Part shown: piece after piece, positions 2,751 to 27,498 of the stretch | Layout: every line of letters starts with the position of its first letter | How positions within the stretch are numbered: the stretch's first letter is position 1 | Source: Candidatus Staskawiczbacteria bacterium | GTDB lineage: Bacteria; Patescibacteriota; Minisyncoccia; Minisyncoccales; Staskawiczbacteraceae | DNA length: 46,776 nucleotides | NCBI GenBank assembly: GCA_016866675.1 | Contig: VGLO01000002.1 | Coordinates: 1-46,776 of the forward strand | Direction: 5' to 3' | The notes under the pieces: model-generated | Told to the model about the DNA's origin: nothing | Databases searched by the model: none | The model's input: the letters and a program-made list of their open reading frames with translations, nothing else | Position numbers and translations under genes: made by a program

Positions 2751-3209
2751 ATGGAAGTAAAAGTAAGTTTAAACAATTTAAGAACAGCACCAAGAAAAGT
2801 CAGACAAGTGGCTGATTTGGTGAGAAATAAAAATGTTGCAAAAGCAAGATCGCTTCTTGAGGCAACTCCACAGAAAACTTCTATTATGCTTTTAAAGCTT
2901 TTAAAGAGCGCTGTGGCTTCGGCAAATAATGATTTTAAACTTCAAGAAGATAGATTATTTATTGCAAGAATATTTGTAGATGAAGGTCCAAAATTAAAAA
3001 GATGGCATCCAATGTCACGAGGTAGGGCATATCCTATAATGAAGAGGACCTCACATGTCACGCTTGTTATAAGTGACGGAAATAAAGAAAATGATTTAAA
3101 AACTGATGACAAAAAGGAAAAAATAATAAAGAAAGTAAGGGATAAAAAAGAAGAGGTAGTAAAAGTTTCATCAGTTAAGAAAACGGTTAAAAAAACAAAG
3201 AAAAAGTAA
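2751..3209 (+). CDS. rplV: 50S ribosomal protein L22 with Lys-rich C-terminal tail
   Basis: Operon position; uL22-like RKVRQVADLVRNKNV...KRWHPMSRGRAYPIMKRTSH. Confidence 0.95.
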   Translation: MEVKVSLNNLRTAPRKVRQVADLVRNKNVAKARSLLEATPQKTSIMLLKLLKSAVASANNDFKLQEDRLFIARIFVDEGPKLKRWHPMSRGRAYPIMKRTSHVTLVISDGNKENDLKTDDKKEKIIKKVRDKKEEVVKVSSVKKTVKKTKKK

Positions 3210-6052: not shown

Positions 6053-6238
6053 ATGGCTAAAACATCACAAGAAGCAAAAGCAAAAATGAAACCAAAGTTT
6101 TCAACAAGGTTGCAAAGACGCTGTTTTAGATGTGGAAGAAGAAGAGGTTTTATGAGGGATTTCGGACTTTGCAGGATTTGTTTCCGTGAGCAGGCAAATA
6201 AAGGAGAAATACCGGGAGTAAAAAAATCATCGTGGTAA
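6053..6238 (+). CDS. rpsN: 30S ribosomal protein S14, zinc-binding short form
   Basis: 61 aa with [20 protein letters not shown] (CxxC...CxxC), typical of type-Z uS14. Confidence 0.96.
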
Positions 6239-6250
6239 ATTTATAAAGGT

Positions 6251-6318
6251 TATAGGGTGTAGGATACAGGGTGTAGTGTTAAATTCTAAACCCTAAATCC
6301 TATATCCTAAATCCTAAA
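6251..6318 (+). repeat. Long sense-strand hairpin, CCTAAAT-heptamer family, copy A (upstream of rpsH)
   Basis: 5-prime arm TATAGGGTGTAGGATACAGGGTGTAG (6251-6276) faces 3-prime arm CTAAACCCTAAATCCTATATCCTAAA (6286-6311). Hand pairing gives 20 WC + 2 G-U pairs of 26 positions. CCTAAAT-like units continue to 6318. Confidence 0.7.
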
Positions 6319-6323
6319 GAAAA

Positions 6324-6713
6324 ATGACAGACCCAATTACAGACATGTTAAATCAAATAAAGAATGCTGAGGCCGTACAAAAGACTGAGGTTATTTTGCC
6401 TTTTTCAAAATTAAAAAATGAAATTGCTTTGATAATGCAAAAAGAGAACTTCTTAGGAGAAGTGAAAAAAGTTTCAAAAGGAAAATTGAAACTTTTAAAA
6501 TTAACTTTAAAATATGATAATGGATTGCCCGCCATGGAGGGATTTAAGAGAGTCTCAAAACCGGGGCAAAGAATTTACACAAAATATCAGGAAATAAAGA
6601 AAGTAAGAGGTGGTTATGGAAAAATGATTCTTTCAACGCCAAAAGGCTTAATGACTGGAGTTGAGGCTAAAAAATCAAAATTAGGAGGGGAGGTTTTAAT
6701 GGAAGTTTGGTAG
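6324..6713 (+). CDS. rpsH: 30S ribosomal protein S8
   Basis: MTDPITDMLNQIKNA is the uS8 N-terminus; 129 aa. Confidence 0.97.
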   Translation: MTDPITDMLNQIKNAEAVQKTEVILPFSKLKNEIALIMQKENFLGEVKKVSKGKLKLLKLTLKYDNGLPAMEGFKRVSKPGQRIYTKYQEIKKVRGGYGKMILSTPKGLMTGVEAKKSKLGGEVLMEVW

Positions 6714-7414: not shown

Positions 7415-7762
7415 ATGTTAGGAAAAAAAATAAAAAGATTAAAAGCCCACAGAAAGATAAGAATGAAGGTTTTTGGAACAAAAGAAAAGCCAAGACTTTC
7501 GGTTTTTAGGTCTGCAAGCTATATTTACGCCCAACTTATTGATGATGAATCTGGTAAGGTTTTACTTTCTGTATCTGACTTAAAGGTAAAGTCTTCAAAA
7601 GCAAAGAAAGTTGAAAGAGCTATGGAAGTTGGAAAAATAATTGCCAAAGAAGCAGTTTCAAAAAAAATCGAGAAAGTTGTTTTTGATAGAGGAGGCTTTG
7701 TTTTTCATGGAAGAGTAAAGGCTGTGGCTGACGGAGCTAGAGAAGGAGGGTTGAAGTTTTAG
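7415..7762 (+). CDS. rplR: 50S ribosomal protein L18
   Basis: Operon position; uL18-like ...[19 protein letters not shown]...[25 protein letters not shown]. Confidence 0.96.
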
Positions 7763-7777
7763 ATAAATCTAAAACTT
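7754..7777 (+). other. Perfect 10-bp hairpin spanning the rplR stop codon
   Basis: AAGTTTTAGA-taaa-TCTAAAACTT. The TAG stop (7760-7762) lies in the 5-prime arm. Confidence 0.5.
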
Positions 7778-7835
7778 AAATTTCTAATTTATAAAAATTT
7801 CTTAATTCTAAAATCATAAATCTTAAATCATAATA

Positions 7836-8391: not shown

Positions 8392-8823
8392 ATGCAAATA
8401 CACGAATTAAAACCAAAACATAAAACAAAGGGTAAGAAGAGAGTTGGAAGAGGTGGAAAGAAAGGAACATACTCAGGAAGAGGTGGAAAGGGACAGACAG
8501 CAAGATCTGGTAGAAAGATGGAACCAATAGTGAGGGAGATTATAAAAAGGTATCCAAAGTTAAAAGCATATAGGAGTAATAAGGCTCCAACAGGTATTTT
8601 GGTTGTAAATATTAGTGCCTTAGATGAGAAATTTGAAAACGGTGAGGTTGTAAGTCCGGAAAGTTTGATTAAAAAGGGTATTTTACGTAATATTAAGGGG
8701 AAGGTTCCAGGGGTAAAAATTTTAGGTGATGGAAAACTAAGTAAAAAGTTGACAGTTGAGGGTTGTAAAACTTCAAAATCAGCAAAAGAAGCGATTGAAA
8801 AAGCCGGAGGAACTATTAAGTAG
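8392..8823 (+). CDS. rplO: 50S ribosomal protein L15
   Basis: KRVGRGGKKGTYSGRGGKGQTARSG is a uL15 signature. The gene starts 1 nt after the rpsE stop, so no rpmD lies between. Confidence 0.96.
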   Translation: MQIHELKPKHKTKGKKRVGRGGKKGTYSGRGGKGQTARSGRKMEPIVREIIKRYPKLKAYRSNKAPTGILVVNISALDEKFENGEVVSPESLIKKGILRNIKGKVPGVKILGDGKLSKKLTVEGCKTSKSAKEAIEKAGGTIK

Positions 8824-8825
8824 CG

Positions 8826-8890
8826 CTTAGGATATAGAGCATGGATTGTAGTGAAAACTAAATCCTAAATCCTAAATCCTAAATCCTAAA
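8826..8890 (+). repeat. CCTAAAT-heptamer hairpin family, copy B (upstream of secY)
   Basis: 3-prime arm is CTAAATC CTAAATC CTAAATC CTAAATC CTAAA (8858-8890). 5-prime arm is CTTAGGATATAGAGCATGGATTGTAG. GGATT-g-TAG pairs with CTA-AATCC, and TTAGGAT pairs with ATCCTAA. Confidence 0.6.
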
Positions 8891-8892
8891 CA

Positions 8893-10170
8893 ATGTGGTA
8901 CGAAAAAATATTATTAGTATTTCGCAATAAAGAATTAAGGAATAAATTTCTATTTATTTCTTTTATTTTTATTTTTTTCAGAATTGCAGCCAATATTCCA
9001 ATTCCAGGAATTGGTACTGAAAACTTAAAGGGCTTTTTTGAGCAGAATCAAGTTTTTGGACTTTTAAACATATTTTCAGGAGGAGCTTTGAGTAATTTTT
9101 CAATTGTTTTAATGGGACTTGGCCCATATATTACTTCAACAATTATACTTCAGCTTTTGACCATGATTTTTCCTGCTTTGGAAAAACTTTATAAAGAGGA
9201 AGGAGAAGCGGGAAGGCAGAAGTTTAATCAATACGGAAGATTGCTTACAATCCCATTAGCTATTGTTGAGGGTTATGGAATGCTTACTTTGTTTCAAAGA
9301 CAAGGTATTATTACAAGTTTATCCTTTCCTATGATGATAAGCTCAATTGTCACAATAGCTGCTGGAGCCATGTTTTTGATGTGGCTTGGAGAATTGATTA
9401 CAGAAAAGGGAATGGGAAATGGAATTTCTTTGTTAATTTTTGCTGGAATAGTAGCTAGCTTGCCAATCAATATTTTCCAAACATTTATAAGTTGGGATCC
9501 TTCAAAAATTGTCTCTTATATTTTGTTTTTCTTGTCTTCAATTCTTATTATAGCTGGAGTAGTTTTTATTACAGAAGCCAGAAGAAATATACCGGTTTCT
9601 TACGCAAAAAGAGTAAGAGGAAACAAAATGTACGGTGGCACTTCAACTTATTTGCCATTGAATATTAACCCAGCTGGAGTTATACCAATTATTTTTGCAC
9701 TCTCAATATTGTTATTTCCGGGTATGATTGCAGGATTCTTGGGTGGAGTAGGAGGTGTTGTAGGGACAACAGCAAATGCAGCAGCTGCATTTTTTAATAA
9801 TCCATGGATTCACGGAGTTTTGTATTTCCTGCTTGTAATTTTATTTACCTACTTTTATACGGCTGTGACTTTTGACCCAAAGACAATTTCTGAAAATTTG
9901 CAAAAAATGGGTGGGTTTGTGCCCGGCGTAAGACCAGGGACTTCAACTGCTGAATTTTTAAAACACATTTTAAATAGAGTTCTGTTTACCGGAGCCATGT
10001 TTTTAGGACTTATTGCTGTTTTGCCAAACATAGTGGCGGGAGCCACTGGAATTACCGGTTTTACATTCTTGATTGGAGGAACATCTCTTTTGATTGTAGT
10101 GAGTGTGGTTTTAGAAACCATGAGACAAATAACTTCGCAGTTGGAGATGAGAGAGTACGACACATTTTAG
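8893..10170 (+). CDS. secY: Preprotein translocase subunit SecY
   Basis: 425-aa polytopic membrane protein in the canonical post-rplO slot, with SecY-like motifs (GLGPYITSTIILQLL, ITEKGMGNGISLLIF). Confidence 0.97.
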   Translation: MWYEKILLVFRNKELRNKFLFISFIFIFFRIAANIPIPGIGTENLKGFFEQNQVFGLLNIFSGGALSNFSIVLMGLGPYITSTIILQLLTMIFPALEKLYKEEGEAGRQKFNQYGRLLTIPLAIVEGYGMLTLFQRQGIITSLSFPMMISSIVTIAAGAMFLMWLGELITEKGMGNGISLLIFAGIVASLPINIFQTFISWDPSKIVSYILFFLSSILIIAGVVFITEARRNIPVSYAKRVRGNKMYGGTSTYLPLNINPAGVIPIIFALSILLFPGMIAGFLGGVGGVVGTTANAAAAFFNNPWIHGVLYFLLVILFTYFYTAVTFDPKTISENLQKMGGFVPGVRPGTSTAEFLKHILNRVLFTGAMFLGLIAVLPNIVAGATGITGFTFLIGGTSLLIVVSVVLETMRQITSQLEMREYDTF

Positions 10171-18860: not shown

Positions 18861-18895
18861 AAATTTGCAAAGCAATTTGTAAAAATCAAAATAAG

Positions 18896-18965
18896 TTAGT
18901 TGTTGGGTATTGGTTGCTCGATAATCGTCACATGACGTATCTAGCACCTAAAACCTAACAACTAA
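18896..18965 (+). other. 22-bp-arm sense-strand hairpin in the rpsD-rpoA spacer
   Basis: TTAGTTGTTGGGTATTGGTTGC (18896-18917) faces GCACCTAAAACCTAACAACTAA (18944-18965). Hand pairing gives 18 WC + 2 G-U pairs of 22. The loop contains the palindrome CGTCACATGACG. Confidence 0.6.
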
Positions 18966-18974
18966 AATAAAAAC

Positions 18975-26036: not shown

Positions 26037-26870
26037 ATGGAAAGCAATTATCAAAGGCAATTTAATTTTCTAAAAAATGGATTTAAGTCTGGGAATTTAG
26101 CTCATGCATACTTGCTTTCCGGGATTGACATAGAATTGATATTTGATTTTACAAGAGATTTTGTTTCTTTTATTAATTGTTCTTTGGAAAATTCTCCATG
26201 CAGAAAATGCGTAAACTGCAAAATGATAAATTCAAAATCCTTCCCTGATTTAATGATTGTTAAATCACAGGATAGTGAAAGTTCGCAGAAAAATGAAAAA
26301 GATATGATGGAAATTTCCATTGAGCAGATAAGAAATGTCCAAAATTTTCTTTCTTTGAAGTCATACTACGGAAGCTTTAAATCGGTTATAATAGAAAATG
26401 CAGAAAGAATGAGTCAGGAGGCACAAAATTGTTTTTTAAAAACACTTGAAGAACCTAAGGGAGGAACACTTATTTTTTTAGTATCTTCTAGGCCAGATTT
26501 AATGTTGAGTACTATTTTTTCAAGGTGCCAGCAGTTAAAGTTTTCAGATAACAGAGGCAGTATACAAATTGAGGACAAATTATCTGCTGATATAAGAAAA
26601 GTTTTAAATATGGATTTGGCAGAAAAATTTAGTTTCGCAAAATCAGTAAACTTAGACGGGGTAAATTTTGGAAAATTATTAGAAGCTCTACAGGTTTACT
26701 TTAGGCAGGAAATGTTGAATGCAATTGGGTTTTGGGGTAAAGCAGAAAGTAAGTATTCAATTGAAAAAATAAAAAAAATAATTAGAATAATTGATAAAAT
26801 AGGTTATCAGTCCAGTATTTACAATATTAATCAAAGATTAGCATTAGAAGTAATATTAATGGAAATATAA
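26037..26870 (+). CDS. holB: DNA polymerase III delta-prime subunit (clamp-loader AAA+ family)
   Basis: AHAYLLSG start, Cys cluster CRKCVNCKMI, SRC-like FSRCQ motif. Short (277 aa). Confidence 0.8.
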   Translation: MESNYQRQFNFLKNGFKSGNLAHAYLLSGIDIELIFDFTRDFVSFINCSLENSPCRKCVNCKMINSKSFPDLMIVKSQDSESSQKNEKDMMEISIEQIRNVQNFLSLKSYYGSFKSVIIENAERMSQEAQNCFLKTLEEPKGGTLIFLVSSRPDLMLSTIFSRCQQLKFSDNRGSIQIEDKLSADIRKVLNMDLAEKFSFAKSVNLDGVNFGKLLEALQVYFRQEMLNAIGFWGKAESKYSIEKIKKIIRIIDKIGYQSSIYNINQRLALEVILMEI

Positions 26871-26876
26871 TTAGAG

Positions 26877-26940
26877 CATAGGATGTAGCGTATAGGGTGT
26901 AGTAAAAAAATAAATCCTAAATTCTAAATCCTAAATCCTA
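26877..26940 (+). repeat. CCTAAAT-heptamer hairpin family, copy C (upstream of frr)
   Basis: 5-prime arm TAGGATGTAGCGTATAGG (26879-26896) faces 3-prime arm CCTAAATTCTAAATCCTA (26916-26933). Hand pairing gives 14 WC + 1 G-U pair of 18. Shares TAGAGCATAGGATGTAG with copy B and TATAGGGTGTAG with copy A. Confidence 0.6.
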
Positions 26941-26943
26941 AAA

Positions 26944-27498
26944 ATGAGTTACAAAGAATTTACGGATAGGTTAAAACCAGAATTTGAGAAGTCTTTTAAA
27001 TTTCTTGAGTCTGAGCTTGCAAAAATTAGAACATCAAGAGCTTCTCCTGCCCTAATAGAGGATTTGGAGGTTGATTGTTTTGGTTCAAAATACTCTTTAA
27101 AGCAGTTAGCAGCCATTTCCTCTCCACAGCCAAATCAGTTGGTTATTCAACCTTGGGATAATTCATATATTGAGCCGATTGAGAAATCAATTTCTCAATC
27201 TGGTCTTGGAATGTCTTGTGCAGTTGATAAAAATTTATTAAGACTAAGTTTACCACTACTTACAGAAGAATATAGAAAAAGTCTTGCGAAGCTGTTAAGT
27301 GAAAAATCAGAACAGGCAAGGGAAACAATGAGAAAACTAAGAGATGAATCTTGGAGTAAAATACAACAGGCTCAAAGAGAGAAAAAACTTACAGAAGATG
27401 ATAAGTTTAAAGGAAAAGAGGAGTTACAGAAATTAATAGACGAGTATTCAAAAAAAATTAAGGATTTAGTTTCTAAAAAAGAAGGAGAAATTACATGA
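26944..27498 (+). CDS. frr: Ribosome recycling factor
   Basis: 184 aa; RRF-like (LAKIRTSRASPALIEDLEVDCFGS...LRDESWSKIQ..). Confidence 0.94.
   Translation: MSYKEFTDRLKPEFEKSFKFLESELAKIRTSRASPALIEDLEVDCFGSKYSLKQLAAISSPQPNQLVIQPWDNSYIEPIEKSISQSGLGMSCAVDKNLLRLSLPLLTEEYRKSLAKLLSEKSEQARETMRKLRDESWSKIQQAQREKKLTEDDKFKGKEELQKLIDEYSKKIKDLVSKKEGEIT

Follow-up and report, generated by a model that had tools for sequence, protein, structure and literature searches.

The hairpins that precede rpsH, secY and frr in a 46,776-nt stretch of Candidatus Staskawiczbacteria bacterium (contig VGLO01000002.1, referred to as the window) are probably copies of a dispersed intergenic repeat, mainly a tolerated selfish or neutral insert and not a dedicated operator. 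Both its unit and its lineage are new to the class of intergenic heptamer hairpins to which it belongs, a known and widely distributed class whose mechanism is unexplained. Members of this class are the STRR sequences of cyanobacteria, paired GGGAATC repeats in Xanthomonas and Nostoc, and TAACTGA repeats in Beggiatoa. The copies occupy intercistronic spacers that otherwise measure 9-30 nt, and their arms stay complementary though the 7-mer differs by locus and by genome. Turnover is fast, with gains, losses and replacements of the element all falling within the time span of species divergence. For annotation, it would be a mistake to label such spacers as operators or as substitutes for a ribosome binding site (RBS).

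The window has a G+C content of 35.8% and carries the S10-spc-alpha ribosomal-protein cluster together with adjoining housekeeping genes. These 46.8 kb contain three full copies and two degenerate ones, every one of them in a spacer between two plus-strand genes. A covariance model was built from the window copies and then run over the window and over the loci of relatives. The copies, with their scores under this model, and the genes around them are listed below.

6053-6238 and 6324-6713, plus strand: rpsN and rpsH, the genes around element A (Pfam PF00253 and PF00410)
6243-6323, plus strand: element A, filling the spacer between rpsN (S14) and rpsH (S8); 85.9 bits
7763-7835, plus strand: degenerate one-armed member in the rplR-rpsE spacer; model match at 7737-7797, 21.9 bits, E 0.009
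8392-8823 and 8893-10170, plus strand: rplO and secY, the genes around element B (Pfam L15 and SecY)
8824-8892, plus strand: element B, filling the spacer between rplO (L15) and secY; 86.6 bits
18896-18965, plus strand: element D, a diverged copy between rpsD and rpoA; model match at 18888-18973, 17 bits, E 0.13
26037-26870 and 26944-27498, plus strand: a holB-like gene and frr, the genes around element C (Pfam PF13177 and PF01765; DNA polymerase III delta' and RRF)
26871-26943, plus strand: element C, filling the spacer between holB (DNA polymerase III delta') and frr; 91.9 bits

A copy generally measures ~66-75 nt and comprises about three GGTGTAG or GRTRTAG units, a 4-9 nt A-rich loop and four to five TAAATCC (CCTAAAT) units. 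The G/T arm of element A (~6252-6276) reads TAGGGTG, TAGGATA, CAGGGTG and TAG, and is followed by a loop (6277-6285) and a C arm of five CCTAAAT-type units (6286-6318). Element B joins a G/T arm at 8827-8855 through a short loop to 4.7 perfect CTAAATC units (8858-8890), which end 2 nt from the ATG; element C has its G/T arm at 26879-26903, an A-rich loop and its C arm at 26911-26942. The diverged element D sets GTTAGTT, GTTGGGT and ATTGGTT against ACCTAAA, ACCTAAC and AACTAAA in a 28-nt inverted repeat (82%), with a small GC hairpin within the inner loop and its 3' end 9 nt from the rpoA ATG. Counts of G and C in the 5' halves of the four spacers are 14 and 1, 10 and 3, 12 and 2, and 12 and 4, and in the corresponding 3' halves 1 and 10, 0 and 10, 0 and 7, and 5 and 14. 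The 73-nt spacer preceding rpsE contains no G at all and holds decayed CTTAAAT- or CTAAAAT-like heptamers with no predicted structure (MFE 0); the model match there spans the end of rplR as well as the spacer.

Elements A, B and C are colinear over 81 alignment columns with a mean column identity of 81%, and this end-to-end alignment identifies them as copies of one unit and not as three independent microsatellites. Tandem Repeats Finder reports a period of 7 at 6280-6318, 8858-8890 and 26911-26942, with 5.6, 4.7 and 4.6 copies, respectively. CCTAAAT doublets (≤2 mismatches) occur 15 times in the window against 1.09 expected, a count reached by 0 of 100 shuffles. An earlier note, made from the letters of this DNA, had described three hairpins of a single two-arm design at rpsH, secY and frr, lying on the coding strand and ending just ahead of each ATG. 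The description was borne out, the C arms ending 1-5 nt from the ATGs at 6324, 8893 and 26944, and it can be extended by the two degenerate relatives.

The units also carry stop codons: each G-arm unit holds UAG and the C-arm units hold UAA (6252-6318, 8827-8890 and 26879-26942), and with a period of 7 the sense RNA has stop codons in all three frames up to the next AUG, as is likewise the case for the Beggiatoa TAACTGA repeats. These all-frame stops might be exploited for termination-reinitiation in translation without Shine-Dalgarno (SD) pairing.

RNAfold gives minimum free energies for the sense strand of -30.8 kcal/mol for copy A (6239-6326, z -5.4), -16.8 kcal/mol for copy B (8824-8895, z -4.5) and -15.8 kcal/mol for copy C (26871-26946, z -4.1), in each case with 0 of 200 shuffles as good; the hairpin of element D reaches -38.3 kcal/mol (z -8.8). 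The stems predicted for copy A (6253-6265/6297-6309, 6268-6272/6290-6294 and 6274-6276/6286-6288, with 3 outer base pairs) come close to the hand pairing previously proposed for it, namely 20 Watson-Crick and two G-U pairs over 26 positions. Elements A and D form near-continuous stems of 21-30 bp, whereas B and C are weak, with helical runs of 2-6 bp interrupted by bulges. The bases of the stems lie 2-12 nt past the stop codon and 1-9 nt ahead of the start codon. Each unit pair combines five Watson-Crick pairs, one G-U pair and one mismatch, so that 6 of 7 positions are paired, and this signature is common to all copies. Such shared imperfect pairing argues against independent slippage at each locus.

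It had further been claimed that the fold is favoured only in the sense RNA, which folding of both strands contradicts. The antisense strands of the copies likewise beat their shuffles (z -3.3 to -4.5), and copy B is better as antisense (-21.2 versus -16.8 kcal/mol), as is copy C in a related strain (-24.4 versus -17.9). Within the window the sense RNA has a slight advantage in stability for 3 of 4 copies; over ten hairpins of this design between co-directional genes, the sense strand is the more stable in 4 and the antisense strand in 6.

Assignment to a conserved cis-regulatory RNA was rejected: the Rfam gathering scan of the window returned only tRNA and left the element unmatched, orthologous junctions lack the element, and there are 0 compensatory pairs among the copies (covariation term +1.25). 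An intrinsic terminator was likewise discarded, as the stems are AT-rich and the bases that follow them are AAAAATG, CAATG or AATG and not a U run.

Only 8 of 56 window genes have a 4-nt SD core at -18 to -4, and rpsH, secY and frr have none. The positions -20 to -1 of the window genes are 79% A+T (45.5% A and 33.5% T) and 11.5% G, and most of these genes have no heptamer array upstream. Loss of the 16S anti-SD in a subgroup of Parcubacteria was described by Tsurumaki et al. 2022 (PMC9297842). The absence of an SD from the three genes, to which the earlier note had drawn attention, is thus real but nothing special, being genome-wide. Nor do the hairpins sit exactly where an RBS would be expected, as had been thought, in an organism that makes almost no use of SD; since the absence is a property of the genome, the hairpin displaces no RBS. 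The options of SD sequestration, of an operator and of a split RBS all presuppose an RBS at these sites. An operator that sequesters an SD was rejected, there being no functional SD to hide, and the SD-like strings in the distal arm are irrelevant, given how little the host uses SD.

Relatives were collected by a protein-guided scan of metagenome contigs; the 15 loci obtained encode SecY proteins with 52-81% identity to that of the window. The CCTAAAT element is absent from the orthologous rplO-secY and rpsN-rpsH junctions in 14 relatives (SecY 52-81%). Their spacers at these junctions are mostly 9-30 nt and AT-rich, with a few unrelated inserts; one relative (L136) has a hairpin of AAAGCTA heptamers ahead of secY. 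A near-empty site was seen in the lake-metagenome contig of a relative, in which the rpsN stop is separated from the rpsH ATG by only GATAAAAAC. No target-site duplication and no defined ends could be recognised from the empty sites.

Turnover is also evident among strains. The element is identical across three samples of the source population. A strain from drinking water is 99% identical in the junction flanks and ~94-96% identical elsewhere, and yet it carries another sequence family before the rpsH ATG (site A, ...TAAGGCGAGCGACCTACCTCTATAACTTCT) and before secY (site B, ...GTAAGGGCGAGCGATTTACCTCCATGACTT). The two replacements, read from contig ends of only 20-30 nt, share ~24 of 29 bases with each other. 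Element C is retained in this strain with 12 changes, including parallel TG->CA changes in two units of the 5' arm that are non-compensatory; a hairpin is still predicted. This gives a rough rate of turnover: at ~95% identity two of the three sites have already been replaced, and where SecY identity is ≤80% none is retained. A conserved operator, the operator being one of the options in the earlier note, cannot be maintained in the face of this absence from the junctions of relatives and the replacement of A and B in a ~95%-identical strain.

Two Logan contigs, which are short-read assemblies, break inside the secY array (L001 and L003). Word depth over the heptamer tracts (8858-8890, 6280-6318 and 26911-26942) is 10-100x that of the flanks in lake metagenomes, which implies that many further loci or organisms in these samples have the tract too. 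Three tiny metatranscriptomes from a related sample had 0 reads on the region. A further hairpin in the window, a GC-rich rod of 98 nt in the rplB-rpsS spacer (2305-2402; -41.3 kcal/mol, z -4.6), apparently belongs to a second, unrelated family; its GGGTGGAGCGAT and CGCTTAGCTCATA are loosely like the ends of the replacement element at sites A and B of the drinking-water strain.

Although the CCTAAAT element itself is missing, its design recurs in relatives with other units and at other junctions. The relatives had been selected by SecY without regard to repeats, and the covariance model matched hairpins in them. One has hairpins before rpsN, rpsE and rplO with ACTACTA, CAAGMTA-like and CTAAACG/CTAAACC units (L125), and another has them before rpsN, rpsE and secY, with CCTAAAG and CTAAAAG among the units (L136). 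The C arms of these relatives (units CTAAACG/C, CCTAAAG, CTAAAAG and ACTACTA) end 2-9 nt from start codons. Throughout the lineage the G arm comes first in ~10 of 10 hairpins and the C-rich arm lies 1-9 nt ahead of the start codon. A unit-level table was used to assess complementarity across the differing units: the variable positions co-vary between the arms (GGA/TCC, GCG/CGC, GGC/GCC, AGC/GCT and GGT/ACC), and a CTA(A)A/TAG core is constant. The exception is a relative with 57% SecY identity (L135), in which the sense strand carries G-rich arrays of GGATTTA type (1969-1989 and 2994-3025), just ahead of the rplF and rpsE starts and without a C-rich partner. The fixed orientation, the common core and the preserved complementarity of the arms could reflect selection for an RNA function.

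Several known systems invite comparison. To our knowledge, gene-adjacent heptamer repeats of cyanobacteria, Xanthomonas and Beggiatoa have been recorded for 35 years without an accepted account of their origin or function. The STRR sequences are dispersed intergenic tandem heptamers of heterocystous cyanobacteria that serve in fingerprinting and have no explained function. The window element shares their dispersed, intergenic and tandem heptameric character; the published STRR units differ from it, and a hairpin is not part of their definition. REP, BIME and REPIN sequences are short, dispersed, non-coding palindromes of intercistronic and 3' regions, transcribed as hairpins and variable between strains. 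REPs are tied to RAYT transposases and are not tandem heptamers, whereas both arms of the window element are period-7 arrays; an assignment to REP or REPIN proper, a palindrome of 20-40 nt without tandem units, was rejected on this ground. No RAYT (Y1 transposase) gene stood out in a non-exhaustive look at the window ORFs. Among the options listed in the earlier note, a REP-like element nevertheless fits best, the copies being a dispersed whole-unit family with positional turnover.

Two published repeat types are close counterparts. Rehm et al. 2015 (PMC4692102) described GGGNATC arrays, in Xanthomonas and Nostoc, with a preference for spacers that separate co-directional ORFs, where they are over-represented; they typically have about four units, are transcribed and show no linkage to IS elements; the G-rich strand lies <50 bp after a stop and the C-rich strand <50 bp before a start. 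Tandem 7-mers, co-directional spacers and the placement of G after the stop and C before the start are common to these repeats and the window element. However, the GGGNATC units contain GGG tracts and form G-quadruplexes, whereas the AT-rich window unit has no more than GG and was examined here as one half of a hairpin pair, and both the unit and the CPR lineage lie outside the coverage of that study. MacGregor 2015 (PMC4679880) reported TAACTGA direct repeats in marine Beggiatoaceae, cyanobacteria and Bacteroidetes, patchily distributed over phyla, positioned a few nucleotides before starts that mostly lack an SD, in some cases within ribosomal-protein operons, and proposed them as regulator sites. 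They resemble the window element as heptamers just before starts, in ribosomal-protein operons and with stop codons in the unit; they differ in that 169 sets are direct and one indirect, and in that the host anti-SD is normal. The window copies show the traits by which STRR-, Rehm- and MacGregor-type repeats are recognised, namely a 7-nt period, co-directional spacers, a G array by the stop and a C array by the start.

A selfish or neutral repeat is the most likely explanation, followed by translational coupling, RNA processing, slippage and ribosome recruitment, in this order. Under the preferred reading, the insert would fold out of the polycistronic mRNA, and the upstream stop and the downstream start would meet at the base of the hairpin. 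The last ~30 nt before the AUG would stay A/U/C-rich and G-poor, like the usual leaders of this SD-less host. Ribosomes of the upstream gene, terminating 2-12 nt from the stem, would melt its base, so that expression of the essential downstream gene would survive the insertion. Effects on coupling or mRNA stability would be at most secondary. The design is present in a minimal CPR genome without SD/anti-SD pairing and within its most essential operons, a location which argues that the hairpin form makes such inserts harmless.

A selected hairpin for translational coupling, or an operator, that hides the downstream leader until it is opened by terminating upstream ribosomes or by a bound protein is unlikely, though it is the best placed of the alternatives; if true, the stoichiometry of S8, SecY, RRF and RpoA would be set without SD/anti-SD pairing. 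It draws on the proximity of the stems to stop (2-12 nt) and start (1-9 nt), on the constant orientation with a G-free arm at the start, on the complementarity kept across different units and on the regulator role proposed for TAACTGA repeats in the same position (PMC4679880). However, the element is not kept at orthologous junctions, the site is empty in a relative and A and B are replaced in a ~95%-identical strain, no compensatory changes separate the copies, the stems of B and C are weak and bulged, and stability shows no sense-strand bias. Further, such coupling would make the low-abundance holB product limiting for frr, which is implausible.

The best lead as to how the selfish or neutral repeat spreads comes from cassettes encoding PF05635, a four-helix-bundle family named '23S rRNA intervening-sequence protein', of which the element would, by analogy, be the gene-less form. 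An acidobacterial locus (L059) contains a 123-aa ORF that matches PF05635 (E 3.6e-37) and lies in the sense orientation between (GGATTYA)n and (YGAATCC)n arrays in a co-directional spacer. Homologues fetched independently at two further loci (L208 and L219) have the same kind of layout, with the neighbours ABC transporter-IVP-ABC transporter and prfA-IVP-prmC. GGATTYA/YGAATCC arms around PF05635 are hence found at three independent loci, in Acidobacteria only; a Pedobacter homologue (L029) has other flanking heptamers and a less clear layout. In arm type and in stop-to-start placement within operons, these cassettes resemble the gene-less hairpins, while the window copies contain no ORF. They may be set beside the ORF-bearing rRNA intervening sequences of Coxiella (PMC4990558). 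Neither the window nor the loci of the 15 relatives yielded PF05635, a transposase or another mobilising gene, and no literature linking heptamer arms with PF05635 was found. Two samples (L219 965-1065 and L220 965-1100) encode an identical PF05635 protein between prfA and prmC, yet in the C-rich array downstream the heptamer variants are not equally many and follow one another differently, which shows that the arrays change faster than the gene.

Taken to its full extent, this lead would unite heptamer-armed hairpins in a single pan-bacterial cassette, as its gene-less form that depends on factors in trans, while the autonomous form would carry a PF05635 (bAvd-like) gene flanked by a G-rich and a C-rich heptamer array, a proposal that we consider tentative and rather improbable. 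A trans-acting factor would then read a short core (CTAAA/TTTAG in the Parcubacteria lineage), keep the arms complementary and insert the element between a stop and the next start. If true, it would account for the drift of the unit under a fixed architecture and orientation, for the joint change of family at two junctions in a ~95%-identical strain and for the source of the long-unexplained STRR-type repeats; the link to PF05635 would make the origin of heptamer repeats testable.

The cassettes also bear on a second alternative, in which the hairpins serve for processing of the RNase III type, segmenting the ribosomal-protein transcript, or as stabilising structures that guard the ends of its segments, comparable to the excised stems of 23S rRNA intervening sequences. 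A stabilising effect on upstream mRNA is known for REP hairpins. Copies A and D offer near-continuous stems of 21-30 bp for such a role, and like arms bracket genes of a family that owes its name to RNase III-excised rRNA inserts. Yet B and C provide only runs of 2-6 bp broken by bulges, and the position is not conserved among relatives, which leaves this explanation doubtful and somewhat behind coupling.

Heptamer arrays of this kind are not confined to the lineage. An exact search for CTAAATCCTAAATCCTAAA over one genome per prokaryote species gave at least 120 loci, and the matches listed include Patescibacteria, Planctomycetota, Verrucomicrobiota, Bacteroidota, Acidobacteriota, cyanobacteria and other phyla. 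Among the matches listed, 0 of 93 scorable CCTAAAT arrays lie inside ORFs (≥90 codons), and in 45 cases against 18 it is the C-rich strand that reads in sense (p 0.0009). When all skewed period-7 arrays among the matches listed are considered, the C-rich strand precedes starts 47:20 and 4 of 158 arrays are inside ORFs. An upstream G-rich inverted partner, giving a window-like design, accompanies 18 of the arrays listed; in three Nostoc genomes among these matches, a CCTAAAT array and a G-rich partner lie between rplB and rpsS. A rule that the array is nearer its 3' neighbour proved weak (56:37 among the 93 arrays listed, p 0.06), and an enrichment in ribosomal-protein operons was set aside as too weak, with 5 of 120 loci listed, only 3 of them independent. 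Viral contigs contain CCTAAAT arrays at 29 loci against 19 and 14 for control heptamers of the same composition (1.5-2x). With control heptamers nearly as common, homology across phyla is not claimed, and the cross-phylum matches may be convergent rather than one family.

This background of heptamer arrays, together with the rapid change of array length and unit variants between strains, is what speaks for microsatellites that expanded locally, spacer by spacer, through replication slippage, with neither copying between loci nor function. Against such an origin, three loci share two heptamers, their order, the unit number and the imperfect pairing, and slippage does not create an inverted partner arm; we regard it as improbable. 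Least probable, by a small step, is that the G-free CUAAA arrays act as an SD-independent site of ribosome recruitment or enhancement (e.g. through protein S1), or as a site for an oligomeric protein reading about four to five units: it accords with the 47:20 bias of C-rich arrays towards start codons among the matches listed, with the CTA(A)A core common to the lineage's units and with the typical four to five units (a preference for four being reported by Rehm et al., PMC4692102), but most genes have no such array, the same genes of relatives do without one, the G-rich strand faces the start codon in L135, and the hairpin would hide the site.

Two further arrangements were seen among the matches listed. 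Nineteen arrays belong to a distinct, longer class in which the C arm comes first. This palindromic element, whose arms start TCTAAATCCTAAATCCTAAACAAATTCAAATGACCAAAA and often have a GC hairpin in the loop, was noted at L006, L023, L034, L046, L053 (4081-4310, an example), L072, L075, L090, L095, L099, L103, L111, L112, L113, L116 and L119; it is located after stop codons, in six phyla or more, and its CCTAAAC...GTTTAGG ends may recall the boxes of integron attC sites. Finally, a whole gene is bracketed by arrays in two cases, nrdR in a verrucomicrobial MAG (L101 1629-2152) and rplB in Nostoc (L057 2549-3507), with a C-rich array before the start and a complementary G-rich array after the stop; arrays so placed could conceivably pair at long range across a cistron.
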